DNA of 64,000 bases from an uncultured Gammaproteobacteria bacterium (GCA_964610305.1 CAZSVL010000002.1:40522-104521); one strand, 5' to 3'. Counted from the stretch's first letter, positions 28,036-49,797 are shown. The notes: a model not told the origin generated them from the letters alone. Made by a program: numbers and translations.

Positions 28036-28042
28036 ATACTCC

Positions 28043-29719: not shown

Positions 29720-29776
29720 TAAAGTAGTCGTCTGTTTTGTGCAGGCGGCTTTTTGTTTTGGTCGAGCTTTGCTACT

Positions 29777-32038
29777 ATGGGAGCCATGAGTAGAAATCTA
29801 CCAATAAAACAGCGGATAGTACAAGCTTTACTGCTCCTTGTGTTGGCTACGCCACTTGTCATGTTGCCAAGTACATTTTATTTCCCTTTTTCTACCACAA
29901 AGGCTTGGTTTTTTAGAGCTGTCATTCTTGCGACCCTTTTTGCTTGTGTATTTTTTTCTAAAGACTTGCGCGCCATCAAGCCAAAAAATAATCTGGTGGC
30001 ATTTGCCGTTTTATTTTTTTTGTTAATTTACGCTGTAACCACCGCTACGAGCATAGATGTGCATAGATCTTTCTGGGGGAATTACGAGAGGATGATGGGT
30101 CTTGTTACTATGATATATTTTGTGGTTTATTTCTTTTTATTGAGAACCTTCTTTTTTGATAAACAATCGTGGCGCTGGTTTTGGGGTATTTTTGGTGGTG
30201 TTGGTATTGTGGTTTTTTTGCTTGGTTTGTATCAAAGCTACAATCCTGACTTTTTGATTGGTAGGCAATTTGGTGGAAACCACGGATACCGTGAAAACAT
30301 TACGCTCGGCAATCCGCTTTATGTTGGGCAATATAGCGTGTATCTCCTTTTTTTGGGCTTGTATTGGCTTAAAGATACATTTGATAGATGGCGCATAGAT
30401 AAATCACGTGTTAAAGAGCTGTGGTTTTGGGGGGCCGCAGTGTTCTCTAGTCTTGGTTTGTTATATTTGTCTCAAACAAGAAGTTCGTTTGTTGGACTAG
30501 TAATGGCGGTTTTTTGTGGCTGCGCTTTGATGGCTTTGCTTCATCAAAAAAAGAGGGATAGGCGCATCTATTTGATTGCTTTTGTTCTTATGAGTTTGGT
30601 GGCTGCTTTTATTTTAAGTCCTCTGAGTCAATCGGTGACCGCTCATCTGGGAAAAGTAAATCGGTTTACCGACTTAAATTTTTTGTCCTCTTCAAACATC
30701 AATCGTATACATGCATGGAAGACGGCCGCAACAGCATGGAAAGACCGCGCTTTTCTAGGTTGGGGTCCTGGCACTTTTTCTATTGCTTATAATCAGTATT
30801 TTGATAGTAGGCGATTAATTAAACGAGACTTTACCGACACGTGGTTTGACAGCTCTCATAATCAATACCTAGACGCGCTATCAGAGCAAGGTGTTTTGGG
30901 GTTTGTTGCGCTGCTTTTTTTGTATGCAAGTGTGCTGATAGGACTTATGGTTGCTTGCCGAAGAGGACATATCAAGCTCATTGATATGATGATGCTTGTG
31001 GGACTGTTGATAACGGTGGGTGTTACTAATATATTTGTTTTTGAACAAGTTACTTCATATTTCAGTCTTTTTTCTTTTTTGGCATTTGTTAGTTTTATTA
31101 TAGATGGACAAAAAAATGACTTCGTTCTTAATCGTTCCTCAGTGCCGATCCGCGGGGCACTTCTTTACGGATCAGTTATAATTTTGTCAGTGGTCTCGTT
31201 TTACACCGTGATAATACCTGCGCGTGCAAACGCTACGGTACTCTCCTCACTTCTGCAAGTGGTACGCACAGGATCTGTTGAAGACCTCTTGCTCTCAGCG
31301 GAGCAGGCAACGCGTAGCGGCTTTGCTCACCATGAGCATAACTATTCAAAATTAGCAGAGCTTTTACTCAAGACGGCCTACATACCGCAGGAGCATCTGC
31401 AGCCCATGATTTCGCTTTACCGCTTCACTATTGAAGGGTTGCAAGAGCAAATGAAAAAACACCCAAGAGATGTATCTTTGCCTATGCTGATAGCGCCCGT
31501 CTTGCATGATGCTTATAGGGTGGCGCCGGCTCTATTTCCGCGTGGCAGAGAGCGCGGCGATCAATATTTTGTTAAGGCTTCTGAGCTTTCTCCCAATCGG
31601 CAAGAGATATTGGCCTATTGGGGTAATCAGATTATGCAGTCAGGCAATTTAAAGGATGCGCGGGAGCCGTATGTAAGAGCGCTGGCGATGGCTCCAAGCT
31701 CTCCAATTTCATTTAATTTGTATGCGGATTATGTAATGGCAATAGAAGAAAATCCCAGCAAGGCACTTCATTTATATGAGTGGGGGATTAAAGAACGTTT
31801 GGTAGACATAAACAGTAAACGCTTGGTGGACATGGTGCGAGCTGTTCAGAGCGCTCATGGTAAGCAGCAGGCTTTAGAGCGGCTTGATGTGTTGATCTAT
31901 TGCTTTACACATGGTGGTGATAGGTCGGACTGTGGCGTTTATGGGCGCACAGACCCTGTTTATGGGCGCATAGATCCGATTCCTTCTTTTATGGGCCCGC
32001 TTTACGACCTAAGAGAAGAATTAGTGAGCAGCACTTGA
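29777..32038 (+). CDS. O-antigen-ligase-like membrane protein with C-terminal TPR-like domain (paralog 1 of 3 tandem)
   Basis: Wzy_C-type core (LSQTRSSFVGLVMAV) plus a helical C-terminal domain. The start is ambiguous (29753-29786). Confidence 0.6.
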   Translation: MGAMSRNLPIKQRIVQALLLLVLATPLVMLPSTFYFPFSTTKAWFFRAVILATLFACVFFSKDLRAIKPKNNLVAFAVLFFLLIYAVTTATSIDVHRSFWGNYERMMGLVTMIYFVVYFFLLRTFFFDKQSWRWFWGIFGGVGIVVFLLGLYQSYNPDFLIGRQFGGNHGYRENITLGNPLYVGQYSVYLLFLGLYWLKDTFDRWRIDKSRVKELWFWGAAVFSSLGLLYLSQTRSSFVGLVMAVFCGCALMALLHQKKRDRRIYLIAFVLMSLVAAFILSPLSQSVTAHLGKVNRFTDLNFLSSSNINRIHAWKTAATAWKDRAFLGWGPGTFSIAYNQYFDSRRLIKRDFTDTWFDSSHNQYLDALSEQGVLGFVALLFLYASVLIGLMVACRRGHIKLIDMMMLVGLLITVGVTNIFVFEQVTSYFSLFSFLAFVSFIIDGQKNDFVLNRSSVPIRGALLYGSVIILSVVSFYTVIIPARANATVLSSLLQVVRTGSVEDLLLSAEQATRSGFAHHEHNYSKLAELLLKTAYIPQEHLQPMISLYRFTIEGLQEQMKKHPRDVSLPMLIAPVLHDAYRVAPALFPRGRERGDQYFVKASELSPNRQEILAYWGNQIMQSGNLKDAREPYVRALAMAPSSPISFNLYADYVMAIEENPSKALHLYEWGIKERLVDINSKRLVDMVRAVQSAHGKQQALERLDVLIYCFTHGGDRSDCGVYGRTDPVYGRIDPIPSFMGPLYDLREELVSST

Positions 32039-32079
32039 TATTTTTGTAGGGGCGCGCTACTATAGCAGCCACTGCTTTT

Positions 32080-34392
32080 ATGACAATTTTGCCACAACGT
32101 CATGTAAAAAAGTTGGTGCGTCTTGCTCAGGCGCTTGTTTTGTTGTCCATGACTATGGTTTTATTTGTAGCTCTTGAGCAGGTTGTATTTCCTTTTGTGG
32201 TCACAAAAATTTGGATTTTTCAGGCTTTTGTTGCGGCGGCTTTTGGTCTTTATTTGATAATTCTTTTATTTGATAGGAAATATTTGCCAAAAATCAGCGT
32301 ACTTTCTGGGGCGATAGCCTTTTTTTTGGTGGCAACGCTTATTAGTTCCTTTTCTGGCGTTGATTCTACCAGATCGCTCTGGTCTGTGCATGAGCGAATG
32401 CTGGGCTGGTTTAATGTAGCGCATTTTGCGGCTTTTTACGTTTTGATTATTGGTTTGTTTAGAACAAAAAAGGAGCGCATGTTTTTGGTGATGTGGTTTT
32501 TGCTTTTGAGCATCCCCAACAGCATAACGGTTATGATTCAAAAGCGTGTTCCCGGATTTTTGCTGAGCGATTCTAATCGTCCTGTGGGGCTTTTGGGGAA
32601 CGCCATTTACGTTTCTTTTTTTGGGGTTTATGTGATGTCATTTGCGCTGCTGGTATCACGTTTTTGTGTTGAAAAATTTAAAGCAAGTAAGCAGTACGCA
32701 ACGCGGCTTATTACTTATGGTTGGTTTAGTGGGATCGTGGTTTGTGCAGTAGCCGCTCTTTTGGCGGGGATAGCAACTGGTTTGTCAAACAGCAGAAGTG
32801 CGATGCTTGGCTTGATGGCCATGCTTATTTGGGCGAGCATAGTTGTGGCGATTGCAGCCTCTGCAAGGCGTGTAAGAAAAAAAGCCATCATGTTTTTGTT
32901 GGTAGTAGCGATGGGTGTAAGTGTTGTGGTGATTGGCAACAAGAGTCCACTGCTAGAAAAGGCTCCGCTTGTGGGAAGATTTGCAAACTTTTCGCTTATG
33001 AGCGGCTCAAATGATAATCGTTTATTTGCGTGGGAGGTGGGGTTGAAAGGATTTGCCGAAAGACCATGGTTTGGCTGGGGGATCTACAACTATAGTTCTG
33101 TTTTTAACAAATACTATGAGGGTCGTCGGCTTCAATCAGACAATTATGCAGAAACCTGGTTTGATAATGCTCACAATTTTTATATTGATACGCTTGTAAC
33201 GGGCGGTATTATTGGTTTGTTGGGTTATTTAAGCATGTATGTTGCGGCACTTTATTTGTGCTATTGGGGGTGGAAGAAAAATCGCCTTTCTTTTTTTGAA
33301 ACAACGCTGCTTAGTTCTTTGGTTGTGTTTCATGCGGTGCAGAATATTTTTGTCTTTGAACACATAGTTTCATATTTGAGTTTCTTTTTGCTGCTTGCTT
33401 TTATAGCAGGTGGTACCGGAAAAGTGCGGAATTATAGGAGAGGAGAAATCAATGTGTTTGTGGTTGTTCTAGCCGCTGTGTTGGTTGTGATTAGTACAGG
33501 TTTTGTTATATACAGGGCTAATATTGTCCAGTATCAAGCAAATAGGTATATGTATACTGGTTTGCATACGCTCTATGCTACCGGCAAAGCTGGCTTGTGG
33601 TTTTCCGATTTCAATAAGGCTTTGGCGCTTCCTACGCCTCACAGAGCACATATTATTGAAGAGATGGCTCGTTCTATTTTAGGTGCCAATATTCCACCAG
33701 AATTGGTTAATGATAGGCTCAGAGAAATGGGGGGATACATCATCAAGGAATTGGAAAATAATACTGCAGAACATGAGTATGATGTGATTAATCGCATGAT
33801 GCTTGCTGAGATGTGGTTTTTTATGGGCCGACTATTCCCTAATGAATATCCGGATGCCTTTGAGTTGGGAGATCAATATTTTACGGCAGCTATAGCTCAG
33901 TCACCACAGCGTCAACAGCTTTTGATTAATTGGGCCAGTCATCTTGCGCGCATTGGTATGTGGGATAAAAGCAGAGATGTTATGCTTCGTGCTCGTTCAT
34001 TTTCTCCCAAGGTTGGTGTAGTTGCCGAGGCGTATCAGGCCTATTTAGAAAGAACAAACCAAAAAATGACGGCATTAAGACACAAAGCTGTGCTTTTGGA
34101 TTTTCACCGAGGATCGTTTAAGGAGTACGAAGAGAATGCCATTGATTATCATAATTTTGTAGATAAAGAGAAAGGTGCTCGCAGGTTGGCGAATTTTATT
34201 GCGTGTACAGATCAGATTGTTCCCGCACAGTGTCCACCAGTTCAGCGCCGCGAGGTAATGGTAATTGTTCCTCGTGTTGAAACATTTGATATTGTAATTA
34301 ATTACTATAAGCAGTTAGATCCAGAGAATCTAGAGCCATTCCAGAGTGCTAAGCTGTTTTATTATCCAGCAGAGGAGTCTCATGAATCATAA
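32080..34392 (+). CDS. O-antigen-ligase-like membrane protein with C-terminal helical domain (paralog 2)
   Basis: Same architecture (SNSRSAMLGLMAM), ending ...ETWFDNAHNFYIDTL. Confidence 0.6.
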   Translation: MTILPQRHVKKLVRLAQALVLLSMTMVLFVALEQVVFPFVVTKIWIFQAFVAAAFGLYLIILLFDRKYLPKISVLSGAIAFFLVATLISSFSGVDSTRSLWSVHERMLGWFNVAHFAAFYVLIIGLFRTKKERMFLVMWFLLLSIPNSITVMIQKRVPGFLLSDSNRPVGLLGNAIYVSFFGVYVMSFALLVSRFCVEKFKASKQYATRLITYGWFSGIVVCAVAALLAGIATGLSNSRSAMLGLMAMLIWASIVVAIAASARRVRKKAIMFLLVVAMGVSVVVIGNKSPLLEKAPLVGRFANFSLMSGSNDNRLFAWEVGLKGFAERPWFGWGIYNYSSVFNKYYEGRRLQSDNYAETWFDNAHNFYIDTLVTGGIIGLLGYLSMYVAALYLCYWGWKKNRLSFFETTLLSSLVVFHAVQNIFVFEHIVSYLSFFLLLAFIAGGTGKVRNYRRGEINVFVVVLAAVLVVISTGFVIYRANIVQYQANRYMYTGLHTLYATGKAGLWFSDFNKALALPTPHRAHIIEEMARSILGANIPPELVNDRLREMGGYIIKELENNTAEHEYDVINRMMLAEMWFFMGRLFPNEYPDAFELGDQYFTAAIAQSPQRQQLLINWASHLARIGMWDKSRDVMLRARSFSPKVGVVAEAYQAYLERTNQKMTALRHKAVLLDFHRGSFKEYEENAIDYHNFVDKEKGARRLANFIACTDQIVPAQCPPVQRREVMVIVPRVETFDIVINYYKQLDPENLEPFQSAKLFYYPAEESHES

Positions 34393-36703
34393 TTTAGAAC
34401 AATTTTTACAAAAGATAGGGCAGGGCGCACTTTATGGTGCTGCGCTTGTTCCTGCTATTATTGCTACCTCTGGGTTTGTTTTTCCCTTTATTACACCTAA
34501 GGTTTTTGTGGTGCAAGCGATGGCAATGGTAGTTCTGGTTGTCTGGATGATTTTATATCTGTATGAGCCAAAGAGATACGCACCTAAAAAGTCCTGGATA
34601 TTTTTGACGTTGGCAGCGTGGGTCTTGTGGCTATTTATTAGCGCTATCTATGGCGTGGATTTTTATAGATCTATCTGGAGCGATCAGGAGCGCATGTTTG
34701 GTATATTCACGGTTGCCAGTTTTTTTGTGCTTGCGTTGGGTTCTAGCGTTTTTTTAAGAGAAAAGAAGGATTGGGGTGGTTTAGCTAAAGCCCTCTTACT
34801 ATCAGGAGCCGTTGTCATGATTGGGGGTGTATATCAACTTATTGATCCGACGGTTTTGGCTGGTGATGGTGGAAGAATTGAGAGTACAACCGGTAATGCA
34901 ACCTATTTGGCTTTTTACGCTGTGTTTATTTTTATACTGTCAATTTTTGTATGGGCTAAGAGGGCGGCTCTCAACGGTTCAAAAGAGATGCTGCTGCGGG
35001 GTGTATTAGCGGCTTTAATGGTTTTATCGGTCGTTAATTTTTTTGGAGCAGCGGCACGTGGTGTAGCTCTTGGATTAGCGGCAGCATTCATATGGGTTGT
35101 GGTAATAGCTGCGGCAATAGGTAGCAGTAAAAAAGTCAGGAACTATGCGCTTGGGGTGATGCTTCTTATGGTAGGCTTTTCAGCGCTATTAGTATTTGGT
35201 GGTAATACGCGACTGGTGCAGTCAGTGTCTCTGCTAAATCGTATTTCTGATTTTTCTATCTCAGGAACTGTAGAAACGCGACTGCGCACATGGGATAGCG
35301 CGTTTGCTGCAACGGCGGAAAAACCCCTCTTTGGGTGGGGGTGGTCAAATTTTGCTGCCGCATATGATAAGCACTATAATCCTGATCAGCTTAAACACGG
35401 TTATGGAGAAACGTGGTTTGATAATGCGCACAATACGGTCATTGAGGTGTTAACCACAAGCGGTGTTCCGGGCGCACTGCTTTATTTGATGATGTGGGTT
35501 GCCTTAATGGGATCACTCTTTGTCTTGTATAAGAAAGGGCGGCTGACAACGACAGAATATGCGATTTTGAGTGCCTACGTTGTCTTCCATTTTGTTCAAT
35601 CGTTATTTGTTTTTGACCATCCGCTGTCTTATCTGGCGCTGTTTTATGTGTTGGGCTATGTGGCTTATTTGGAGGCGGGGCAGCGTACCATATTTTCTCA
35701 AGGGTTGCGTTTAAAAGGCAACACAAAAAGAACGGTATCGGTGGCGCTTGTTCTTTTGGGAATCGTGATGCTTAATGTGACCGTTGTAAGAGCGGTGCGT
35801 GCCAATCGGCTTGAATCTGATTCACATGAGGCATTGGCTCTGCAGCGAGATATAGGCCTATGGCATGAATTAACCAAGCAAGCGGTAGAGGTTAGCGGAC
35901 CATACTCAAGTCATATTATTTTAAACGCCGGAAAGGCGCTTCAGGAATTGCCGCTTGTGGCTCTTCCGCGCACGCAAGATTTAGCACTCATTTATGAAGA
36001 CATGATCGGGCGCGTGGAGCGGAATATGGCCAAGCACCCACACTTTATCACCCACAAGCTGCTTTATGTGAGTCTTTTGGCCAATCAAGTGCTTCTGTTT
36101 GAGGAAACAAAAGAGGCTTCTGCGGCTCTGGCGCTCAGGGTGGCAGAGGATGCACGTGAACTATCGCCGCTTAGGCAGCAGATGTTCTATACGTTGATCC
36201 AGAGCTATATGGATGCTGATCGGTTTCAAAAAGCTCTTCCTCATATTGGCATGCTCCGTTCATCCTCTCTTTTGCGTGCCGATGTGCACAGGGTAATTGG
36301 CGGCTTTTACCTCTTGGCAGGTCAACACAAAGAAGCTATAGATTCATATGAGATGGCCATACGAGTTCATGGATCTCCTTTGGCCGTGGTTGGTGCTGGT
36401 GATAATGTGGAGTTATTGGAAGAATACGGGCTATTGCAGATAGAGCACGGAAATCCTATGCGAGGTGTGTGGTTTTTGGACAGCATTGCTTCGTGCCGAC
36501 AGTCTGATATAGATTGGGTTCCTTGTTTGTGGGGAAGCAGCGATATGGCCGCATTGTTTGTGCCAAGTAGGAAAGCGCTAGCAGCTGCTTTGATTTATTA
36601 TAGACAAGCGGGAAGAGATGATAGGGTTGCTGCATATACCACTTATACAGAGCGTTTTTATCAGGGACTGCAGCTGCAGCAGATTCTAGAGGCTACTCCT
36701 TGA
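34382..36703 (+). CDS. O-antigen-ligase-like membrane protein with C-terminal TPR-like domain (paralog 3)
   Basis: Overlaps the upstream stop by 11 nt. Conserved ...GETWFDNAHNTVIEVL block shared by all three paralogs. Confidence 0.6.
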   Translation: MNHNLEQFLQKIGQGALYGAALVPAIIATSGFVFPFITPKVFVVQAMAMVVLVVWMILYLYEPKRYAPKKSWIFLTLAAWVLWLFISAIYGVDFYRSIWSDQERMFGIFTVASFFVLALGSSVFLREKKDWGGLAKALLLSGAVVMIGGVYQLIDPTVLAGDGGRIESTTGNATYLAFYAVFIFILSIFVWAKRAALNGSKEMLLRGVLAALMVLSVVNFFGAAARGVALGLAAAFIWVVVIAAAIGSSKKVRNYALGVMLLMVGFSALLVFGGNTRLVQSVSLLNRISDFSISGTVETRLRTWDSAFAATAEKPLFGWGWSNFAAAYDKHYNPDQLKHGYGETWFDNAHNTVIEVLTTSGVPGALLYLMMWVALMGSLFVLYKKGRLTTTEYAILSAYVVFHFVQSLFVFDHPLSYLALFYVLGYVAYLEAGQRTIFSQGLRLKGNTKRTVSVALVLLGIVMLNVTVVRAVRANRLESDSHEALALQRDIGLWHELTKQAVEVSGPYSSHIILNAGKALQELPLVALPRTQDLALIYEDMIGRVERNMAKHPHFITHKLLYVSLLANQVLLFEETKEASAALALRVAEDARELSPLRQQMFYTLIQSYMDADRFQKALPHIGMLRSSSLLRADVHRVIGGFYLLAGQHKEAIDSYEMAIRVHGSPLAVVGAGDNVELLEEYGLLQIEHGNPMRGVWFLDSIASCRQSDIDWVPCLWGSSDMAALFVPSRKALAAALIYYRQAGRDDRVAAYTTYTERFYQGLQLQQILEATP

Positions 36704-36734: not shown

Positions 36735-38735
36735 ATGCAAAAGATGCAGCTTTTTATAGCTATACCCTCATATAACCGTGCTGACGCCTTGCGAACGTTG
36801 CTAGGTCAGTTGCAGGTGCAAAAAACCGATTATGATTTTGTGGTAGTTGCATTAAATGATGGTGGTAATGAGCAGTCTGAGGCGGTTTTAAAGCAAGCCT
36901 TAGCACATGGATTACGTTTGGTGTGGAATAAGACATCCCGGGGAAGCGGTTTGCCTTCTGCTCGGAATAAAATTTTAGACACCATTGAGCGTCTTTACAA
37001 CAGACAACCAACCACGGTTGTTTTTTTGGATGATGATTGCGAAGTGGACGAGGATTTTGCGCAGAGGCTCTATGAAGCATCGCTGAAGTATGATGGTTTT
37101 ACCTTTGCTATTGAAACGGTTGGTCGCTCTGGCATTGTAAATACCAAAGATAATCCTCTTGTCAGTAGATTGCTTGCGCCGGCTTTAGGTAGAGCCTGGC
37201 TTAAGATTGGTTTTTTACGGGGCGGGTATTTTCAGAGAAGAAGCGTGCCGGTGCGGGTGGACCATCTTCCGGGTGGGTGCTTGGCTTATAGGTTTGATAA
37301 ATATAAAGAGCTCAGATTTGATCCGCAGTTAAACGACGGTAACTCAATTGCCGAGGATACGGATTTTTCACGAGCACTAAGTGTAGCGGGGGCGCAGCTT
37401 TGGTATTGTGGCTATTACGGCATTATCCACCGACCACCATCTCGTGGCGGCGTTCGTGTGGCTACTTCTAAGGAAAAATATTATTATTACTGGAGAAATA
37501 AACAGTACTTGTGCAACAAGTGGGAAGGTCGACGCTGGAATTTAGCGGCACGTACCTTTACGTTTTTTGAGGCTGTTGTGTTAAGCGTGATGCACAGAAC
37601 GTGGCTGTTGCCAGCTTGGCTAAAAGCAGGTAGGCAAATTTTTAATGTAGAAAAAAACGAACGTCTTTCTATTCTTGCGCCGATCTCTGGTATAAACCCA
37701 GATTCTACTTTTGGCGGAGAAGTATACGATGCGCACTTGCTTTCAGCACTCAGCACATATGCTGATGTACACGTGCTGGTTCCTGAGGGTGGAGTAATTG
37801 CAGACGGCGGTAGTGGTTGGAGCGTTACAACATTTTCCAAACCAAAATCATCACTGCGCTACTATTTTAGACAACTCCGTTTGGTGAAGGATATTTATAG
37901 AAAAAGGCCATTTGATATATTGTGGGTTCATTCTCCATACACGATGGCCCCATTTATGCTCATGTGCAAGTTGTGGATGCCTGGCATTAAGATACATGCG
38001 CAGTTTTTGCACAGAGAAACGTCTTTCAGTAGAACACTTTTGACGTGGTTTGGTCTGCATTTTTGGGATTCAATGAGTAGCTGTTCTGCTGCTAGTGTTA
38101 AAGATATAGTAGAGTATTTTGGGTTTGATGATAGCCGCTTTGTGGTTGCATATCCGGGCGTATCAGATGTGCCTGAGCTGCCAGTGGAGACTGAGCCAAA
38201 GGAAAGCGATTTTTTACTGCTACATGTAGGAAGTCTTATCAAAAGAAAAAATGTCTCATTTTTGCTTGATGTTATGGCTGCTTGTGGTTCTGATGTGAGC
38301 CTTGTTGTTTTGGGTGACGGGCCGCAGCGAGAGAATTTGGAGCAAAAGGCTGAGCAGCTTGGTTTGGACAAACGTGTACAATTTCTTGGAAGATGTAGTG
38401 ATGAGCAAAAGCATTCTTGGATGCAGCGCGCTGATGTGTTGGTTTTAGCTTCCTTGCGCGAGGGATTTGGTATGGTTGTTACAGAAGCAGCAACTCACGG
38501 CACGCCATCTTTGGTGTCAGACAGATTTTCTCTTCCAGAAGTGGTACTGGAAAATCAGACAGGTCTGGTGCGCTCGCTTGAAATAAATGCTTGGGTTAGT
38601 GCCATTGCGGATCTAAAAGATAACTCTGACAAAAAAGGGAAATTGGGACAAAGAGCCAAGGAGTGGACGGCAAGCCAGTTTAGTTGGGATGTCAGCGCGC
38701 AGAGAGTCCACAAACACCTAAAGACTCTCCTATGA
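36735..38735 (+). CDS. GT2-GT4 two-domain glycosyltransferase
   Basis: N-terminal GT2 (IAIPSYNRADAL...FLDDDCEVDED) and C-terminal GT4 (EGFGMVVTEAATHGTPSLVSD). Confidence 0.65.
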   Translation: MQKMQLFIAIPSYNRADALRTLLGQLQVQKTDYDFVVVALNDGGNEQSEAVLKQALAHGLRLVWNKTSRGSGLPSARNKILDTIERLYNRQPTTVVFLDDDCEVDEDFAQRLYEASLKYDGFTFAIETVGRSGIVNTKDNPLVSRLLAPALGRAWLKIGFLRGGYFQRRSVPVRVDHLPGGCLAYRFDKYKELRFDPQLNDGNSIAEDTDFSRALSVAGAQLWYCGYYGIIHRPPSRGGVRVATSKEKYYYYWRNKQYLCNKWEGRRWNLAARTFTFFEAVVLSVMHRTWLLPAWLKAGRQIFNVEKNERLSILAPISGINPDSTFGGEVYDAHLLSALSTYADVHVLVPEGGVIADGGSGWSVTTFSKPKSSLRYYFRQLRLVKDIYRKRPFDILWVHSPYTMAPFMLMCKLWMPGIKIHAQFLHRETSFSRTLLTWFGLHFWDSMSSCSAASVKDIVEYFGFDDSRFVVAYPGVSDVPELPVETEPKESDFLLLHVGSLIKRKNVSFLLDVMAACGSDVSLVVLGDGPQRENLEQKAEQLGLDKRVQFLGRCSDEQKHSWMQRADVLVLASLREGFGMVVTEAATHGTPSLVSDRFSLPEVVLENQTGLVRSLEINAWVSAIADLKDNSDKKGKLGQRAKEWTASQFSWDVSAQRVHKHLKTLL

Positions 38736-41700
38736 AACTCCTTATTCTAAACGAATATTGTCAGCCTTTTGTTCCTGGCGGAGCGGAAGCAAGCATGATG
38801 CAGTCAGCAAGAAGCATGCAAGAAAAAGGGCACGATGTCACTATCGTTACTCCAAATTACGGAACTGTCGCGCAAGAAGTAATTGACGGTGTTTCAATTA
38901 AGAGATATTGGTTTCCAGCGCGGCTTGCTAAGGGTTCTAGAAAAACCACCAGGGCGTGGTGGCACACCAGCATTTTTTGGTGGTTGTATGGTAGTTATGC
39001 GGTGCTCAGAGCCACTTCTAAAATTCGTCCTGATATTATTCATGTTCATGGCAAGTTTAGTCTTGTCTCTGCTTTGGTTGCACGTTTTTTTTACAAGATT
39101 CCGGTCCTTTTCACAGCCAGAGATTACAGGGCCTTGTGCAATTACGGACTTTGCATTACCAGTCACGCAAAGCGTTGCTCTACAACAGAATACTGGGGCT
39201 GGGAGTTTGCTGAATATGTCCGTATATATACCAAAGGCAGGCCGCAGGATTGGGCTATAAATGCTCTCTATGCGGTAAGAGGAAGGATGTGGTCATCATT
39301 GCTGCGCGCCTGCGCACGCAGGGTTGATAAGGTTATATGTGTCAGCAAAGCAGTTGAGTGTATATATAACAAAAGTGGAGTACTTAATACAACGACTATT
39401 TTTAACATTCAAAAAAAGTTGCCTGAGACCAAGGAAGTGATGCAGAGCCGTCACAGAGCCATTGCTGTCGGAAAACTATCCCCCGGCAAAGGTGGTGGAT
39501 TTTTGCCAGACGTAATTATCCAGAGCCTTGAGATTGATCCAACACTGAAGTGGGAAGTATATACCAGCGGTGGTCTTTTATATAATGATTTTATTCGCGT
39601 CCTAGACACTCATATTAAAAACGGAAGCGTTCTTGTTAGTGGATATATTCCCAATGACCAGCTGCTGGAAAAGATGGCGCAAAGCGCCGTGTTGGTTATT
39701 CCTTCTGTGTGGCAGGAGCCGCTTACCCGTCTGGCACTTGAAGCGCAGAGCGTTGGCACGCCGGTGGCCATTACTGATACAGGTGGCTCCAGTGAGGTTG
39801 TTAGAGATGGGGAAACGGGCTTGGTTTTGCCGCTAGAGTCTAAGGCGTTTGCGCAAGGTGTTGTTACAATAGCGCGTGATACAGACAAATACCGAAATGC
39901 CATTGCTGAAAATAGAGAGAGTCTATTGAGTACATTTTGTGTTCAACCAATTAATCAACACGAGCATCTCTATAAGAGTCTTATTGACAATAAGCCCTCT
40001 GCACTAGGTGTTATGCTTCCTCCAGGCGGCTCTTTTACGGTGCTGGATCATCATGGACAGAAATCACGTTTTATTTTTTATCTGGAGAAATACGCTAAAG
40101 CATTTAATCATGTCTATGTTTTTGTATATGAGCGCGAGGACATACGGGGATTGCCAAGCAATGTCACGGTAGTTCAGCCACCATTTGATATGGACAAGCG
40201 GTTGTACGGTTTTCTCCTTCCTTTTTATCATCGCAGCCTTATTAAACGTTGTTCTGTAATAAGGCTTACTCAGATGGATGGGTGTATTCCCGCTATCATG
40301 AGCACGCTTTTTTGGCGCGTGCCTTATGTGGCCACGTTTGGCTATAAGTACGCGGAGTTTGTAAGGCTTAATGGTAGAATTGCTTTTAGCTATCTTATGC
40401 GAGCACTGGAGCGTGTTGGTATTAGATATGCAAGCGCCGTAATTTACACTACTGAAGAGACCAAAAATCATTTACTAGGACGGGTTGGGCCCTGGCTGGC
40501 TCCCCGGCTGTGGTTTGTGCCCAACGGAGTTGATACATCAACTTTTGTACCAAAAGAAAGAGATTCTAGCATACTGCTTTTTGTAGGGAGACTTGAGAAG
40601 CAAAAGAATCTATTTGCTCTGCTGCAGGCCATTGCTGATGTACCTAAAGAATGCGCCACCAGAGTCGTGTGGATAGGTAGAGGTAGTCAAAAACGAGCGC
40701 TTGAGAATAAGGCCCAGCAGTTGGGTGTTGAGCTTGAAATTATTGATAAGGTGGATCACGCAGCGCTACCCGAGTATTTTGGTCGGGCTGGCATTTTTAC
40801 TTTGGTATCGTTTATTGAGGGTATGCCAAAGGTGTTGGTAGAGGCTATGGGTGCGGGGTGTTGTCCTCTTGTCTCTGATGCAGACGGAAACAGAATATTG
40901 GTAGAGCATGAGAAGACCGGCTATGTGGTAGGCACTGACTCGCAGAGCATTGCCTTGGGGCTTACAAAATTATTAAAGAATCCTCTATTGCAAAGGCGGT
41001 ATGGAGATGCAGCTAGATCCCATATTGTAGAGCGATATGATTTGAGCGCCACACTTGAAACAGAGACGCAAGCATTAAAGAAGTTTGACACTGCAACTCC
41101 TTCAATACTGCGGCGACTTTTTGTAAAACCGTTTGTATCGCTTTTGAAATTTTCAAAGAGAGGCAGTGGTTTTTCTATGCGCATTATCAAGTGGACAGGT
41201 AGAGCCGCAGTGCCTACCCATCCTAAACATCTTTACTCGCCTTCATCTCTGTGGGCGCTTGAGCATATAAAAGAGGGGAGTCGTGTACTTGATGTGGGCT
41301 GTTCGGCTGGTGCTCATAGTATGGCAGTTTCTCAAAAGGCAGGCTTTGTGCACGGGTTTGATTATGATAGGCGGAGGATCTTGCAAGCAAAGCAAGCCGC
41401 AGAGCGTGAGGGTCGCAAAAGTATAATTTTTTCACATGGAGATGCAACAAAAAGGTTTCCATTTGCAGAAAATACACTAGATCATGTACTATTGCTAGAC
41501 ATTTTAGAGCATGTGTATCAAAGAGATGATGTTCTGTCTGAGTGCGTCCGTGTTCTAAAGCCAGGCGGCACGTTGCTTTTGGCACTGCCAAACAGGGATA
41601 CAAAATGGAAGCAGTTGCAGCGTAGTGTGGGGCTCAGTTCATATACTGATCCTGATCATAAAATTGAATATACGTTGGATGAGTGCAAAGAAATTTGCCA

Positions 41701-41890
41701 ACGCTTTGGGCTTGAGGTAGGGCGCGTTGAGGGAGTTGTGGTGGACACACCGTGGATCGGTATAGGTGATGCAATCGGAGCGTTGCTACCACGTTTTTAT
41801 AAAGCCTATGCAAAGCGTCGTGCAGACAAAGTAAAAACACATCCACAGGAGAGTATTGGATTTAGAATTGTGGCAAATAAACCCCTATAG
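38732..41890 (+). CDS. three-domain GT4-GT4-class I SAM methyltransferase fusion
   Basis: ATGA overlap with the upstream gene. Two GT4 units plus a C-terminal methyltransferase (VLDVGCSAGAHS...LKPGGTLLLALPN). Confidence 0.65.
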   Translation: MKLLILNEYCQPFVPGGAEASMMQSARSMQEKGHDVTIVTPNYGTVAQEVIDGVSIKRYWFPARLAKGSRKTTRAWWHTSIFWWLYGSYAVLRATSKIRPDIIHVHGKFSLVSALVARFFYKIPVLFTARDYRALCNYGLCITSHAKRCSTTEYWGWEFAEYVRIYTKGRPQDWAINALYAVRGRMWSSLLRACARRVDKVICVSKAVECIYNKSGVLNTTTIFNIQKKLPETKEVMQSRHRAIAVGKLSPGKGGGFLPDVIIQSLEIDPTLKWEVYTSGGLLYNDFIRVLDTHIKNGSVLVSGYIPNDQLLEKMAQSAVLVIPSVWQEPLTRLALEAQSVGTPVAITDTGGSSEVVRDGETGLVLPLESKAFAQGVVTIARDTDKYRNAIAENRESLLSTFCVQPINQHEHLYKSLIDNKPSALGVMLPPGGSFTVLDHHGQKSRFIFYLEKYAKAFNHVYVFVYEREDIRGLPSNVTVVQPPFDMDKRLYGFLLPFYHRSLIKRCSVIRLTQMDGCIPAIMSTLFWRVPYVATFGYKYAEFVRLNGRIAFSYLMRALERVGIRYASAVIYTTEETKNHLLGRVGPWLAPRLWFVPNGVDTSTFVPKERDSSILLFVGRLEKQKNLFALLQAIADVPKECATRVVWIGRGSQKRALENKAQQLGVELEIIDKVDHAALPEYFGRAGIFTLVSFIEGMPKVLVEAMGAGCCPLVSDADGNRILVEHEKTGYVVGTDSQSIALGLTKLLKNPLLQRRYGDAARSHIVERYDLSATLETETQALKKFDTATPSILRRLFVKPFVSLLKFSKRGSGFSMRIIKWTGRAAVPTHPKHLYSPSSLWALEHIKEGSRVLDVGCSAGAHSMAVSQKAGFVHGFDYDRRRILQAKQAAEREGRKSIIFSHGDATKRFPFAENTLDHVLLLDILEHVYQRDDVLSECVRVLKPGGTLLLALPNRDTKWKQLQRSVGLSSYTDPDHKIEYTLDECKEICQRFGLEVGRVEGVVVDTPWIGIGDAIGALLPRFYKAYAKRRADKVKTHPQESIGFRIVANKPL

Positions 41891-41893
41891 ATT

Positions 41894-43918
41894 ATGCAAA
41901 AAAAGGCATTTATTACCGGTATAACAGGACAGGATGGCTCGTATTTAACCGAGCTCCTTTTGGAAAAAGGATACGAGGTGCACGGACTTATCAGAAGAAG
42001 TTCTAATTTTAACACACAAAGAATTGATCATTTGTATCAAGATCCTCATGCGCCCAACCGGCGACTTTTTTTGCATTATGGAGATCTGAGCGATGCAAGC
42101 GCCCTCTCTCGCTTGGTGGAGAAAATTCAGCCGGATGAAGTTTATAATTTGGGAGCGCAGAGTCATGTGCACGTGAGTTTTGACATACCTGAATATACAG
42201 CTGATATTGTCATGCTGGGGACGGTAAGACTGCTTGATGCGATTAGAAAACTAGGAAAAGATGTTCGGTTTTATCAGGCGGGCAGCTCTGAGATGTTTGG
42301 CCGTGTTCGAGAAGTTCCACAGAGCGAGCTTACGCCGTTTTATCCACGTAGCCCCTACGCATGTGCCAAGGTGGGAGCGCATTGGATGACGGTGAATTTT
42401 AGAGAAAGTTATGATTTATTCGCCAGCAACGGCATCTTGTTTAATCACGAATCGCCTCGGCGCGGAGCAACGTTTGTAACCAAGAAGATTTCTAGAGCTT
42501 TTGCTCGCATTAAGGCAGGGATAGATCCGTGCGTTTATTTGGGAAATCTTGAGGCACGCAGAGATTGGGGATATGCCAAAGAATATGTTGAGGTAATGTG
42601 GCGTATGTTGCAGCATGATACTCCGGATGATTTTGTAGTTGCCACCGGAACAAACCATAGTATAAGAGATTTTGCTCAGCGAGCGGGGCATTATGCTGGT
42701 TATGATTTAGTGTGGGAAGGTGCTGGTTTGGATGAGGTGGGTATGGACAGGACTACAGGAAAAATTTTGGTGAGGATTGATAAACGTTACTATAGATTAG
42801 CTGAGGTTGAGCGATTGGTAGGGGATGCAAGTAAGGCTGAACGTGATCTTGGCTGGAAGCCTCAAACTGATTTTGATCAGCTGGTAAAAATTATGACGGA
42901 GCATGATATGCAGGAGTATGGTGTGAGTGGCGGAGCTCCAATCCTTTTTGAGCAAAACTCAACAGATCAAAGCGCTATAGCTAAAGACGCAAAAATATTT
43001 GTAGCCGGACATAAAGGTTTGGTGGGGTCTGCTATTGTGCGGGCGCTGAAGGCAAAAGGCTATAATAATATCATCAGCAGAAGCAAAGAAGAGCTAGATC
43101 TGCGAGATCAAAGAGGGGTAGACGCCTTTTTTGCCCAAGAAAAACCAGAATATGTGTATTTGGCAGCAGCGCGTGTGGGAGGCATTTTAGCTAATGATAC
43201 GCATAAGGCAGATTTTATATATGATAATTTAAGCATTGAAACTAACGTTATCAGCAGCGCTCACAAGTACGGCGTAAAAAAATTGCTATTTCTTGGAAGC
43301 AGTTGCATTTACCCTCGTGGTGCCCAGCAGCCAATGAAAGAGGATGCTCTGCTTGAGGGTGCACTTGAGCCCACCAATGATGCATATGCAATTGCAAAAA
43401 TTGCCGGCATTTATCTGTGCAGGTCATATCGGCAGCAGTACGGAAGCAACTTTATATCGGTAATGCCTACAAATTTGTATGGGCCAGGCGATAATTTTGA
43501 TTTGGAGAGTTCCCATGTCATACCGGCACTTATTGCAAAGTTTGTAAAAGCAAAAAATGAGGGATCTTCTAGTGTTAATATTTGGGGGACCGGAAAACCA
43601 CGGCGCGAGTTTTTACATGTTGATGATTTAGCTGACGCCTGTATTTTTTTGATGGAATCCTACCAAGATGCTGAGCTTGTGAATATAGGAACAGGCGTTG
43701 ATATCACCATAGAGCAGCTTGCCAAGAGCATTGCAGAAAAAGTAGGGTTTACGGGAGCGCTTCGTTTTGACACCAGCAAGCCAGATGGCACGCCTCGTAA
43801 GCTTTTAGATGTGAGCCGTCTTCACCAGTTAGGCTGGCGTCATCAAATCCAGCTTGACGAGGGGCTCAGCAGTACTATTTCTTGGTATGAGCAAAACATC
43901 TCTAGCACCACGCAATAA
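41894..43918 (+). CDS. gmd-fcl: bifunctional GDP-mannose 4,6-dehydratase / GDP-L-fucose synthase (Gmd-Fcl fusion)
   Basis: N-terminal half matches Gmd ([33 protein letters not shown]). C-terminal half matches Fcl/WcaG ([53 protein letters not shown]). Confidence 0.9.
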
Positions 43919-44990
43919 GACAGATTTCCTTTTTGTGTATAGGAACCCCGCTCTCAATGAGGTTCTTGATAGTAAAGATGAGTGCGGATTGCCCCAAGAT
44001 TTTTTGTACGGGATGAGCGCTCTGTCGCCTGCGGGCAATTGGATTAATGTCCCCAAAGGAGCCAGAGTGGGCTTAAGAAGACTAACCAATGTTATTGAGT
44101 GGCCGTTTACTCGTTTGGCAAAACTGGGCTTTCCGCTAGAAATATACCCTCAATTTAAGGCCAAGCTTAATAGATCCCGAGTAGTGTTTGGCATTAATGA
44201 TGCAATAGGTTTTGGATTGCTTTTTTACAAGCGTCTTGGTCTGCTTAAGGCTGATGTGTGGGTAATTGCCCAAAGCGTTCATGAACGAGCGCTTAGACAT
44301 TTTAAGTTAAAGTGGCTTACTATGCCTTTTGTAAGGTGGCTTTTAAAAGGAGCTGAGCGTGTATTTGTTCTGTCTGATGCGGCAAAAGAGCCTATGATCG
44401 TCAATTTTGGAGTGGATGCTAAAACGCTGCATAAGTTCTCTTTTGGCGCTGATACTCAATTTTGGAAACCGGCGCGGGGTCCACGATCTAACTATGTTCT
44501 GAGTATTGGTAATGATTCTAATAGAGATTACAAAACCCTTCTTGCTGCCACTACTTCAAACGTACCGGTAAGAATAATTACGCATTTGTCAGTAGAAAGA
44601 TCTGCCGGAGAGCTCATGTTAGAATCGTCTCTTAGCTTTGAGCAGGTACGCGAGCGATACCAGAGTGCCGCACTTGTTGTTATTCCAACCACAGAATTAC
44701 TTTATGAATCGTCTGGTCTCTCATGCGCATTGCAGGCAGCTGCATGTGGAGCTCCTTTGATTTTGCCTGCTATACCGGCGCTGCAGGAAATTTTTAAGAA
44801 TAAGGAGCACTGTCTTTTTTATAAGCCGGGAGACAGCCGTGAGCTCGGGCACTTGATAGAGCAATTGCTTGAGGATAAAAAAAGGGCAGCACGCATGGGA
44901 CGGAGGGCGGCATCATACATAAAAAAATACTTATCTTTAGACGCTCCCGCTAGGAGCATAAGAAAAGTCTTGCAAAAAAAAGCAGCATAA
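43887..44990 (+). CDS. GT4-like glycosyltransferase
   Basis: C-terminal GT4 motif region ([24 protein letters not shown]). The start is uncertain: ATG 43887 overlaps the upstream gene by 32 nt. Confidence 0.5.
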
Positions 44991-46244: not shown

Positions 46245-47993
46245 ATGACAGTACTTGGAATATCTTGCTATTATCATGATTCTGCAGCAGCACTTATTGT
46301 AGATGGAAAGCTTGTTGCTTGCGCAGAGCAAGAGCGGTTTTCGCGAAAAAAGCATGATAGCGATTTTCCGCTAGATGCCATAACTTTTTGCCTGCAGAAG
46401 GCGGGCATTACAATTGATCAGGTAGATGCGGTAGCTTTTTACGAAAAACCACTTCTAAAATTTGAACGGCTTTTGTTTTCTCATATAGATGGATTTCCTA
46501 AGAGCCTCCCAACGTTTCTTAAGGCCATGCCGTCATGGCTTGGGACAAAATTAAGATTGCAATCAAAAATAAAAAGGACGCTTAAATACAGGGGGCCGGT
46601 ATATTATGTTCATCACCACATGGCGCATGCCGCAGCAGCTTTTTTGGTGAGCCCGTTTAAACAGGCAGCTGTCTGCACCAGCGACGGCGTGGGGGAGTGG
46701 ACCACCAATTCCCTTGGTCATGCATCAGAAAAAGAGATTACCCTTAAAAAAGAGATCCGATTTCCGCATTCTCTTGGCTTGCTCTATTCTACCGTCACGG
46801 CATATCTTGGTTTTTCAGTGAACAATTCAGAGTATAAGGTTATGGGTCTGTCACCTAATGGAGATCCAAGCGTATATAGGGAGCATTTTAAGCAGATAAT
46901 TGATGTAGCCGAGGACGGCAGTTACGCTTTTGACATGAGCTACTTTAATTTTCATGTGGGATCGCGTATGCCCTCCAGAAAGTTTTGCGATTTGTTTGGC
47001 GGGCCAGCACGCGATGCTGAATCGGAGTTGCTGCAACGTCATAAAGATATTGCCGCAGCACTGCAGGAGCGGGTTGAGGAAATACAGCTCATGCAGTTGC
47101 GCCACCTTTACAATATAACTAATTGTGAGAATTTAGTGATGGGCGGTGGTGTGGCTCTCAATAGCGTCTTCAATGGCAAGATTTTAAGCGAGACGCCTTT
47201 TTCTAAGGTATGGATACACCCCAATGCAACCGATGGTGGATCAAGTGTGGGGGCAGCTTTTTATGTTTATAACACTGTTTTTGACAATGAGCGGGATTAT
47301 GAATTTAACAACCCTTACCAAGGCCCTGCGTTTAGCGACAGGCAGATAAAGGGGTTTTTAGAAGAGCATGGTGTGGTGTATGATCAGTTTGAAAGTAAGG
47401 ATGCTTTAGTTGAGCGTACGGCAGAGCTCTTAGTTGAAAACAAGGTTATTGGTTGGTTTCAGGGCGGCATGGAGTGGGGGCCCAGAGCGCTGGGCGCGCG
47501 CAGTATTATCTCAAACGCAAGCAATCCAGATATGAAGGAGATACTCAACACAAAGGTTAAGCATAGGGAGCCTTTTAGACCATTTGCGCCGGTAGTGTGT
47601 GCAGAGGATGCTCCTGTGTATTTTGAGTGCGACGTGCCTGTGCCTGTGCCCGCAGATTACATGCTTATGGTCTATCCCATAAAAAAAGAGTTTCATGACA
47701 GCATACCTGCGGTAACGCATGTAGATGGAAGCGGGAGACTCCAGACGGTGCGCAGAGAGCAAAATGAACTTTATTACGATGTAATAAAGGCTTTTGGCAG
47801 ACTCAGTGGTATCCCCATACTGGTAAACACTTCTTTTAATATCAGAGGCGAGCCTATTGTGTGCTCGCCATTTGATGCATATCGTTGTATGATGGGCACG
47901 GGCATAGATTGTTTAATAATGGGATCATTTGTAATCTTCAGGGAAAATAATCCTCAACACATGTGGGATAGTGAGCAGCTTGCCATAGATTAA
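46245..47993 (+). CDS. NodU/CmcH-family carbamoyltransferase
   Basis: N-terminus MTVLGISCYYHDSAAALIVDGKLVACAEQERFSRKKHD is the carbamoyltransferase N-domain. Length about 580 aa. Confidence 0.75.
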   Translation: MTVLGISCYYHDSAAALIVDGKLVACAEQERFSRKKHDSDFPLDAITFCLQKAGITIDQVDAVAFYEKPLLKFERLLFSHIDGFPKSLPTFLKAMPSWLGTKLRLQSKIKRTLKYRGPVYYVHHHMAHAAAAFLVSPFKQAAVCTSDGVGEWTTNSLGHASEKEITLKKEIRFPHSLGLLYSTVTAYLGFSVNNSEYKVMGLSPNGDPSVYREHFKQIIDVAEDGSYAFDMSYFNFHVGSRMPSRKFCDLFGGPARDAESELLQRHKDIAAALQERVEEIQLMQLRHLYNITNCENLVMGGGVALNSVFNGKILSETPFSKVWIHPNATDGGSSVGAAFYVYNTVFDNERDYEFNNPYQGPAFSDRQIKGFLEEHGVVYDQFESKDALVERTAELLVENKVIGWFQGGMEWGPRALGARSIISNASNPDMKEILNTKVKHREPFRPFAPVVCAEDAPVYFECDVPVPVPADYMLMVYPIKKEFHDSIPAVTHVDGSGRLQTVRREQNELYYDVIKAFGRLSGIPILVNTSFNIRGEPIVCSPFDAYRCMMGTGIDCLIMGSFVIFRENNPQHMWDSEQLAID

Positions 47994-49572: not shown

Positions 49573-49585
49573 TAAGGTGTTTTGT

Positions 49586-49792
49586 ATGGAAGAAATGTTA
49601 GAACAAAAAAAAGAAGATCTGCAGCAGATCCCAGAGACAAATCCTGGTTTTTTTAGACAGTTTGCGCGTTTTTTACGCGTGAGAAAACTCTACTGGCTTA
49701 CCCCTATTGTACTCCTTCTTCTTTTGGTGGGAGTGCTTATTGTGGTGGGGCAAAGCTCTAGTGTCTCGCCTTTTATCTACGCTCTGTTTTAG
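49586..49792 (+). CDS. small single-TM membrane protein
   Basis: AAGGTG RBS before ATG 49586. MEEMLEQKK...LTPIVLLLLLVGVLIVV. Confidence 0.4.
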   Translation: MEEMLEQKKEDLQQIPETNPGFFRQFARFLRVRKLYWLTPIVLLLLLVGVLIVVGQSSSVSPFIYALF

Positions 49793-49797
49793 AAACA

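Follow-up and report, generated by a model that had tools for sequence, protein, structure and literature searches.

A predicted single-chain Gmd-Fcl enzyme and two multi-module glycosyltransferases in a probable surface-glycan cassette

A 64,000-nucleotide (nt) stretch of DNA (GCA_964610305.1, CAZSVL010000002.1:40522-104521; hereafter the window, whose nt are the coordinates used throughout) carries three successive multi-domain genes on the + strand at positions 36735-43918, as identified by open reading frame (ORF) calling and Pfam searches. They encode a protein with two glycosyltransferase (GT) domains of families GT2 and GT4, a GT4-GT4-methyltransferase (GT4-GT4-MT) protein, and a 674-amino-acid (aa) protein in which a GDP-mannose 4,6-dehydratase (Gmd) is followed by a GDP-L-fucose synthase (Fcl). 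It is likely that this segment represents the cytoplasmic core of a conserved surface-glycan cassette, in which adjacent, translationally coupled genes have been fused, GDP-L-fucose is produced by one chain, and the resulting glycan is methylated and probably carbamoylated. These ORFs and the three fusion architectures had been put forward in a preliminary description of this DNA, and both positions and domains were recovered as described by ORF calls, Pfam and NCBIfam; the E-values and the open frames of 2-3 kb far exceed chance. Database loci and proteins of this analysis are designated by L- and P-numbers, respectively. The three genes are:

36735..38735, + strand: GT2-GT4 gene, 666 aa (ORF with PF00535, PF13439 and PF00534)
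38732..41890, + strand: GT4-GT4-MT gene, 1052 aa from the ATG at 38732 (a longer ORF from the TTG at 38684 gives 1068 aa)
41894..43918, + strand: Gmd-Fcl gene, 674 aa (P0001 100% identical; P0002, 675 aa, 86% identical)

Domain organization of the Gmd-Fcl protein

The Pfam domain GDP_Man_Dehyd was matched in two stretches of the 674-aa protein (555 bits), and each half was recognized by its own NCBIfam equivalog model. The gmd model TIGR01472 (EC 4.2.1.47) scored 569.5 bits on aa 3-341, for a cut-off of 415, and was covered from position 1 to position 341 of 342. The Fcl model NF047922 (EC 1.1.1.271) was covered from position 2 to position 306 of 308 by aa 365-670, with a marginal score of 502.9 bits for a cut-off of 500; the homologue in locus L082 scored 501.9 bits. 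The block-by-block alignment with both E. coli enzymes, claimed in the preliminary description, was borne out. The N-terminal half matched E. coli Gmd (1db3) over aa 3-340 with an E-value of about 1e-136, likewise obtained for human GMD, and the C-terminal half matched E. coli Fcl (1bsv and 1e6u) over aa 366-668 with an E-value of about 1e-114 (3e-115 for 1bsv), both solved E. coli proteins being matched nearly end to end with their catalytic residues kept. The protein was divided as follows:

41900..42916, + strand: GDP-mannose 4,6-dehydratase domain (aa 3-341; TIGR01472, aligned to 1db3)
42917..42985, + strand: interdomain linker (aa 342-364, about 23 residues; poorly conserved, with in-frame indels; columns ~347-385 of alignment A1, see below)
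42986..43903, + strand: GDP-L-fucose synthase (3,5-epimerase/4-reductase) domain (aa 365-670; NF047922, aligned to 1bsv)

Cofactor motifs and catalytic residues were retained in both halves. In the alignment with 1db3, the Gmd half keeps the GxxGxxG NADP(H) motif as GITGQDGSY (aa 9-17), and its residues S131, E133, Y155 and K159 occupy the positions of E. coli T133, E135, Y157 and K161; the Thr to Ser replacement at S131 is conservative and shared by the closest homologues. The Fcl half keeps GHKGLVGSA at aa 372-380. Its alignment with 1bsv, gap-free through the catalytic region, places S469, Y498 and K502 at the reductase triad S107, Y136 and K140, and C471 and H541 at the epimerization pair C109 and H179. 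None of these catalytic residues, in either half, varied in alignment A1, which comprises the 14 closest fused Gmd-Fcl homologues. An AlphaFold2 model of the fusion, built from 14 sequences, was of moderate confidence (pLDDT 74, pTM 0.52), low confidence being confined to loops and to the linker (pLDDT <50 at aa 346-360). The model supports two Rossmann-type domains and a disordered linker, with no defined packing of the domains. As judged from sequence, the Gmd-Fcl protein is a complete GDP-mannose 4,6-dehydratase joined through a flexible linker to a complete GDP-L-fucose synthase.

Another identity of the C-terminal half was considered. It could be a different short-chain dehydrogenase/reductase (SDR) acting on GDP-4-keto-6-deoxymannose, such as a GDP-D-rhamnose or GDP-6-deoxytalose reductase or a colitose-type synthase, in which case a different 6-deoxyhexose would be present in the glycan. 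The Fcl model score, which barely clears its cut-off here and falls below it for the L081 homologue (475.2 bits), leaves some room for this identity, and enzymes of this superfamily switch product by few substitutions. However, the alignment to E. coli Fcl is nearly gap-free at the very low E-value given above, the equivalents of Cys109/His179 and Ser107/Tyr136/Lys140 are kept and do not vary among the 14 homologues, and no other NCBIfam model exceeded 125 bits on this half. Only a slight probability is attributed to this alternative, and assignment of the C-terminal half to GDP-L-fucose synthase is retained below.

Evidence that the fusions are genuine

A missed stop codon or an indel introduced during sequencing or assembly could have merged gmd and fcl, as well as the GT genes. 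Such artefacts do exist in databases. A few database fusions look artefactual, for example P0059, with an Arg/Pro-rich, out-of-frame-looking stretch between its halves, and the apparent single ORF of locus L055, the sole locus flagged by the ORF test, was found upon translation to be a spurious out-of-frame read-through upstream of a normal fcl. In addition, a single source accounts for the database record of P0001, the protein of the window itself. Against an artefact, no in-frame stop is present at the Gmd/Fcl junction and the fused frames are kept in independently assembled relatives, as judged by sequence comparison. Locus L082, from a contig of another metagenome, is colinear with positions 28.7-50.8 kb of the window at ~68% nucleotide identity, and its fused genes are intact, with the same three architectures (665, 1050 and 675 aa). 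Protein identity between the window and its relative is 62% for GT2-GT4, 68% for GT4-GT4-MT and 86% for Gmd-Fcl. Logan assemblies of two more sequencing runs (L083 and L084) independently contain these fused genes, and a further 13 Gmd-Fcl homologues, with 58-64% identity, retain the fused frame.

The linker provides additional information on this point. Between the window and P0002, the Gmd domains are 94% and the Fcl domains 81% identical, whereas the linker is far less conserved and contains a one-residue in-frame indel. Across the 14 homologues, linker length and sequence vary, yet the frame is always kept and none has a stop there. The preliminary description had located the junction at about 42990-43010; a junction does exist, but the linker lies slightly upstream, at 42917-42985, and the position first proposed is where the Rossmann fold of Fcl begins. 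Furthermore, the first ATG within the Fcl half is that of Met480, a residue located beyond its catalytic serine and cysteine. Because the fused frames are conserved, the linker indels are all in frame and Fcl lacks its own ATG, the three genes are regarded as genuine fusions; an artefact is very unlikely, with a nearly negligible share of the probability.

An AGGAG sequence located 6 nt before an in-frame GTG (42912-42925) was observed in the linker and could in principle provide an internal start for free Fcl. Internal initiation was examined and rejected, the AGGAG/GTG motif not being conserved in L082, L081, L089 and L087.

Distribution of Gmd-Fcl fusions

A survey of such fusions, suggested in the preliminary description, found them to be rare but recurrent: about 60-70 clusters carrying both Gmd and Fcl halves were detected in a search of 5.8 billion protein clusters. 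Both domain orders were found and, when a full-length Gmd is considered, they are represented by ~31 (Gmd-Fcl) and ~30 (Fcl-Gmd) clusters. Those in Fcl-Gmd order (P0015-P0025, P0035, P0038, P0039, P0042, P0043, P0048-P0066 and P0138) form at least two sizeable clades; the two enzymes were thus joined independently in each of the two orders. When Gmd domains were placed in a rough neighbour-joining tree, fused Gmds were scattered among unfused ones in several clades, and the fusion has therefore arisen several times. One protein in the Gmd-Fcl order, P0036, comes from the gene set of the green alga Tetraselmis striata. P0030 (locus L086), for which the longest contig has the same length (128,635) as that recorded for the window's proteins, was considered as a possible second copy on the contig of the window and was rejected; its locus has a G+C content of 51%, no nucleotide similarity with the window, and efflux genes of the Gram-negative type.

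Separate genes are the usual situation. Among the 80 loci retrieved from GTDB representative genomes, gmd was typically directly followed by a separate fcl (~66 adjacent pairs) and no true fusion was found, in a scan that used peptide patterns specific to the present Gmd-Fcl protein and is not an unbiased census. A library of representatives at 50% identity (best match 501 bits) was unfit for counting, other members of their clusters evidently standing in for the close fusions, but it did reveal fusions in the reversed order. An exact look-up of the window's Gmd-Fcl protein gave no entry. Where fused proteins have been named by their source, for example in a Candidatus Magasanikbacteria genome, they are labelled only 'GDP-mannose 4,6-dehydratase'. 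No natural Gmd-Fcl fusion was described in the open-access literature searched, which is an absence of evidence. A 2022 review of nucleotide-sugar dehydratases (PMC8987622) presents the GDP-fucose pathway as separate enzymes, and a fused dehydratase/epimerase-reductase for UDP-rhamnose only.

Multi-module glycosyltransferases

The two genes preceding Gmd-Fcl encode the following domains, the MT domain depending on S-adenosylmethionine (SAM):

36756..37313, + strand: GT2 (GT-A) domain of GT2-GT4 (aa 8-193; PF00535, 45.8 bits for a cut-off of 23.3)
37713..38705, + strand: GT4 (GT-B) domain of GT2-GT4 (aa 327-657; PF13439, 36 bits; PF00534, 119.6 bits)
38774..39985, + strand: first GT4 module of GT4-GT4-MT (aa ~15-418 in the 1052-aa numbering; PF13439/PF13579 on aa 31-230 in the 1068-aa numbering, first Glycos_transf_1 stretch)
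40001..41059, + strand: second GT4 module of GT4-GT4-MT (aa ~424-776; PF00534 on aa 624-779 in the 1068-aa numbering)
41249..41719, + strand: class I SAM-dependent methyltransferase domain (aa ~840-996; PF08241 (Methyltransf_11), 66.5 bits for a cut-off of 21.2; PF13847 and PF13649)

The GT2 domain contains a DDD motif within FLDDDC (aa 97-102, nt 37023-37040), of which D99, D100 and D101 are invariant in seven homologues. It is separated from the GT4 domain by a hydrophobic segment (aa ~271-297) and a linker of variable length. The GT4 domain carries the E-x7-E motif EGFGMVVTE (aa 576-584, nt 38460-38486), and its PDB matches are GT4 enzymes, including PimA. Seven homologous GT2-GT4 clusters, from 665 to 684 aa long, share this architecture at 44-68% identity.

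In the GT4-GT4-MT protein, PF13439 and PF00534 (Glycos_transf_1) were each matched in two stretches, with 91 and 154.5 bits, respectively. The E-x7-E motif reads EPLTRLALE in the first module (aa 329-337, 1052-aa numbering) and EGMPKVLVE in the second (aa 696-704), for which PDB matches comprised PglH/WlaC and PimA. All three GT4 modules of the two proteins combine both Pfam half-domains above the gathering score with an E-x7-E motif, as expected from GT4 members. The MT domain shows the SAM motif I VLDVGCSAG (aa 852-860), and the solved proteins closest to it in sequence comprise, among others, the methyltransferase 3bus, MitM and the D-glucose O-methyltransferase 6uv6. About 60 residues separate the second GT4 module from the MT domain, in which no obvious heptad pattern or long coiled coil was seen by eye. 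Related clusters numbered 7-8 for GT2-GT4 and 6-7 for GT4-GT4-MT, and every one that could be placed sits in the same cassette.

A further double-GT4 protein (17013-19376, 787 aa), made of two complete GT4 units, is encoded in an upstream glycan sub-cluster that includes a single GT4 (13760-14974). Multi-GT fusions are thus habitual in this genome.

Gene arrangement and conservation of the cassette

The GT2-GT4 gene runs into the GT4-GT4-MT gene through an ATGA start/stop overlap (38732-38735), 3 nt separate the stop of the latter (TAG, 41888-41890) from the ATG of Gmd-Fcl (41894), and the end of Gmd-Fcl is overlapped over 32 nt (43887-43918) by a downstream GT4-like gene, as it is in L082. 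This tight packing argues for a single operon. Promoter-like sites were fewer than expected from shuffled sequences and the terminator-like hairpins were weak only, making the promoter/terminator scan uninformative. Two start codons were reconsidered. The true start of GT4-GT4-MT is most likely the ATG at 38732, rather than the TTG at 38684, because of the ATGA overlap and of the 1052-aa length of database protein P0123, which is 100% identical. Likewise, the ATG at 43887 is the probable start of the GT4-like gene, giving 367 aa, since its L082 homologue is 368 aa long.

The Pfam scan covered all ORFs of at least 150 aa between 8.4 and 64 kb and three of the nine ORFs between 1 and 8.4 kb. The genes surrounding the three fusions are:

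29753..36703, + strand: three tandem Wzy_C (O-antigen ligase/polymerase/O-oligosaccharyltransferase family) membrane proteins (761-785 aa; PF04932, 66-78 bits each)
43887..44990, + strand: GT4-like glycosyltransferase (367 aa; PF00534, 42.4 bits)
45007-45819: UDP-glucose/GDP-mannose-dehydrogenase-family gene (270 aa; partial N-terminal domain and central domain)
46230/46245..47993, + strand: NodU/CmcH-type carbamoyltransferase (PF02543 (Carbam_trans_N), 262 bits; PF16861 (Carbam_trans_C), 229 bits; conserved in L082)
49798-50502, - strand: GT2 resembling polyprenyl-phosphate sugar synthases (234 aa)
50499..51950, - strand: polyprenyl-phosphate glycosylphosphotransferase, the initiating enzyme (PF02397, 187 bits; TIGR03025, 323.5 bits for a cut-off of 295.55; conserved in L082)

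The dehydrogenase-family protein lacks the C-terminal nucleotide-sugar-binding domain and has the same 270-aa form in L082, and is therefore no truncation artefact. A small membrane protein is also encoded downstream of Gmd-Fcl, before the carbamoyltransferase. The latter, announced at 46245 in the preliminary description, is indeed present with both Pfam domains; with 176 bits against the NodU equivalog model (cut-off 1000), its sequence makes it a member of the carbamoyltransferase family and not NodU itself. It is followed by a multi-pass membrane protein of 525 aa, weakly similar to Agl23, and by an 81-aa ORF (49547-49792). In L082, an extra GDSL/AlgX-like protein (21076-22221, 381 aa) is encoded between a small DUF5989-like ORF and the GT2 gene; it is absent from the window (49572-49798), where only the 81-aa ORF remains. 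As a whole, the window contains five Wzy_C genes within 25 kb (12335-13753, 14981-17041, 29753-32038, 32080-34392 and 34346-36703). Three of them are the tandem paralogues of ~770 aa, with long C-terminal extensions, and a weak TPR match was found in 14981-17041.

The order of the cassette, namely two or three Wzy_C genes (~770 aa), GT2-GT4, GT4-GT4-(MT) and Gmd-Fcl, is found in relatives, and the cassette extends to more distant contigs of Magasanikbacteria type. Two or three Wzy_C copies precede GT2-GT4 in L081, L082, L089 and L090. Loci L081, L089 and L090 keep the order Wzy_C (two copies), GT2-GT4, GT4-GT4-(MT)-Gmd, the second protein being extended by a C-terminal Gmd domain (TIGR01472, 460 bits for the cut-off of 415). 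This protein is GT4-GT4-MT-Gmd in L081 (7180-11430) and L089 (10001-14254), with 1416-1417 aa, and GT4-GT4-Gmd in L090 (10001-13462), with 1153 aa and no methyltransferase. In L081 and L089 it is directly followed by a separate Gmd-Fcl gene, resulting in two Gmd domains in a row, and then by a DegT-type aminotransferase. The L089 aminotransferase (16263-18404, 713 aa) is fused to an SDR domain of the epimerase/dehydratase family, and its L081 counterpart begins as a DegT aminotransferase and runs off the contig end. Locus L081 belongs to a Candidatus Magasanikbacteria genome (GCA_016204305.1; Patescibacteria group), and the host organism of the window is probably a member of the Patescibacteria (candidate phyla radiation), of Magasanikbacteria type.

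This variability may also be read differently. The fusions could be real, but selectively near-neutral by-products of genome compaction, due to stop-codon loss between adjacent, translationally coupled genes, that ensure equal expression without any kinetic channelling or special mechanism. The genes of the cassette overlap or lie 3 nt apart, relatives differ freely in their modules (with or without MT, extra Gmd, DegT-SDR fusion), Gmd/Fcl fusions arose repeatedly and in nearly equal numbers in both orders, with a scattered distribution in the Gmd tree, and unfused adjacent pairs are the norm. On the other hand, members of the Gmd-Fcl clade remain fused down to 58% identity, suggesting that the fusion is at least not deleterious, and its repeated, independent occurrence with the same pair of enzymes is consistent with an advantage of proximity. 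Mammalian GMD and FX have also been reported to associate physically, which likewise speaks against neutrality. Neutral compaction is considered a real possibility, on balance somewhat doubtful, and the reading adopted below is that of a surface-glycan cassette of fused, translationally coupled genes.

Proposed function

We infer with high confidence, from the domain and residue comparisons, that the 674-aa protein would convert GDP-mannose to GDP-4-keto-6-deoxymannose and then to GDP-L-fucose within one polypeptide, and that it would have originated when the stop codon separating gmd from fcl was lost, since the two genes usually lie side by side, unfused and with gmd first. The fusion would fix a 1:1 stoichiometry and hold the intermediate close to the second active site. 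Substrate channelling is a reasonable assumption, as is the fucosylated, methylated and carbamoylated nature of the glycan.

The remaining steps are proposed with moderate confidence. The nearby phosphoglycosyl transferase would prime a polyprenyl-phosphate carrier, on which GT2-GT4, GT4-GT4-MT and the downstream GT4 would extend the glycan. At least one GT module may use the GDP-6-deoxyhexose made next door, the main argument being that relatives fuse Gmd to GT4-GT4(-MT). By analogy with WsaE and PBCV-1 A064R, which work in this way, the C-terminal SAM methyltransferase may O-methylate the sugar just added by its own GT modules. The carbamoyltransferase would add a carbamoyl group, and the upstream Wzy_C proteins would polymerize the glycan or transfer it to an acceptor outside the membrane, possibly an S-layer protein, a pilin or a wall polymer.

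Several observations weigh against this scheme. The Fcl half hardly exceeds the threshold of its model, and the L081 homologue is below it. The PDB and NCBIfam matches of the GT modules are generic GT4 and GT2 enzymes, from which donor and acceptor specificity are not readable, and no recognized fucosyltransferase family (GT10, GT11, etc.) was detected. Among the scanned ORFs of the window, neither a flippase (Wzx) nor an ABC exporter (ABC_tran, ABC2_membrane) was found, nor were enzymes forming GDP-mannose; an ABC exporter was also absent from the syntenic loci L081, L082 and L089. Finally, a fusion is no proof of channelling: Gmd and Fcl each oligomerize alone, and the AlphaFold2 model, given its pTM, defines no arrangement of the domains.

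A more far-reaching reading can be derived from the diversity of modules. In the Magasanikbacteria-type lineage, nearly all cytoplasmic steps of a fucose-glycan pathway might be hard-wired into three or four giant, module-swapping polypeptides, and a nucleotide-sugar-forming domain attached directly to glycosyltransferases would constitute a covalent 'metabolon'. The module forms GT4-GT4, GT4-GT4-MT, GT4-GT4-Gmd, GT4-GT4-MT-Gmd, Gmd-Fcl and DegT-SDR are all observed. This reading is unlikely, without being negligible. If true, it would mean that GDP-mannose-derived 6-deoxy sugars pass straight into a methylated, carbamoylated glycan that covers an ultrasmall episymbiont at its surface, whether on S-layer, pili or wall.

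The proposed surface-glycan cassette is of interest in several respects. A natural single-chain enzyme leading from GDP-mannose to GDP-L-fucose has practical appeal for the production of fucosylated oligosaccharides, and with it one could test cleanly whether the labile 4-keto intermediate benefits from protection by proximity. The fusion of Gmd to GT4-GT4(-MT) in relatives constitutes 'Rosetta-stone' evidence that an otherwise unassignable GT uses GDP-mannose-derived 6-deoxy sugars. The conserved cassette also represents a concrete target for the study of surface glycans in candidate-phyla-radiation bacteria. Nothing describing glycosylation in these bacteria turned up in the literature searched, and a 2024 preprint on Saccharibacteria called glycosylation processes unexplored.

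Comparison with known systems

Every part of the segment belongs to a well-known family, and both the chemistry and the module logic are known; what is described here is an architectural variant and no new biology. Similarity with the E. coli enzymes Gmd (1db3) and Fcl, also named WcaG (1bsv, 1e6u), extends over full-length halves, cofactor motifs, catalytic residues and the gmd-then-fcl order. The differences are the single polypeptide, the replacement of Thr133 of E. coli Gmd by Ser131, and a 23-residue linker that takes the place of the ~20-residue C-terminal tail of Gmd and of the first four residues of Fcl.

Plant RHM-type UDP-L-rhamnose synthases (PMC8987622) also combine an N-terminal dehydratase with a C-terminal epimerase/reductase in one chain and produce a nucleotide-activated 6-deoxy-L-hexose. 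They differ by the nucleotide (UDP instead of GDP), by the sugar, by their eukaryotic lineage and by an independent origin. Two consecutive GDP-fucose-forming steps are fused in Bacteroides Fkp, a fucokinase/GDP-fucose pyrophosphorylase. The same is true for FK-GFPP of brown algae (PMC6418280), which belongs to the salvage pathway and has unrelated folds, whereas Gmd-Fcl belongs to the de novo pathway. By analogy, Gmd-Fcl would be the GDP-fucose counterpart of the RHM fusions and the de novo counterpart of the fucokinase/pyrophosphorylase fusions.

For the GT4-GT4-MT protein, the closest parallels are found among S-layer, viral and O-antigen systems. WsaE, involved in the S-layer glycan of Geobacillus stearothermophilus, acts through its MT on the sugar just added (PMC2943079). 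It likewise unites two GT modules with an O-methyltransferase, and its cluster includes a WbaP-type initiating enzyme and a Wzy_C-family transferase, as compared from its description. WsaE differs by its N-terminal MT, its use of dTDP-rhamnose and its Wzm/Wzt ABC exporter, none of the latter type having been found in the scanned part of the window. In A064R of chlorovirus PBCV-1 (PMC9614988), once the GT modules have added the terminal sugar, the MT of the same protein 2-O-methylates it. Both proteins have their modules in the order GT-GT-methyltransferase, but A064R has 638 aa, with one module of GT-A fold and one founding a new GT family, both rhamnosyltransferases, instead of two GT-B (GT4) modules in 1052 aa.

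Dual-GT polymerase modules, in some cases with a terminating methyltransferase in the same chain, are further known from WbdA/WbdD, WbbB and ORF6 of K. pneumoniae O7 (PMC11231755). What sets these systems apart is their reliance on a coiled-coil molecular ruler, on a partner kinase and on an ABC transporter equipped with a carbohydrate-binding module; the Wzm/Wzt transporter typical of this ABC-transporter-dependent, chain-terminating class was not found among the scanned window ORFs. By comparison with these systems, GT4-GT4-MT can be described as having the module order of A064R and the set of functions of WsaE, with GT-B modules. The qualification of all three fusions as unusual, made in the preliminary description, holds in part. 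It applies to Gmd-Fcl, which is rare, and to these particular GT fusions, but the class of multi-module GT and GT-GT-MT proteins was already known from WsaE, PBCV-1 A064R, WbbB and K. pneumoniae O7 ORF6.

Other features of the window

Just upstream of the glycan cassette, an ECF-type (extracytoplasmic function) sigma factor (19959-20510) and a DUF5667 protein (20532-21539) are encoded. They are followed by two large ORFs without Pfam match, of 1256 aa (21759-25529) and 726 aa (25818-27998), and by a PEGA-domain protein (28043-29719). Proteins of this region (19959-29719) are possible surface proteins. The G+C content rises up to 0.54 at 26-28 kb.

A second region of elevated G+C content (0.53-0.56, as compared with ~0.46 for the whole window) extends from 8000 to 12300. 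It includes a 632-aa ORF (10341-12239) with thrombospondin type 3 and MopE-like metal-binding repeats. A tmRNA gene was identified on the - strand at 3098-3498 (Rfam RF00023, 81 bits, full length), this being the sole Rfam family found in the window at the gathering threshold.

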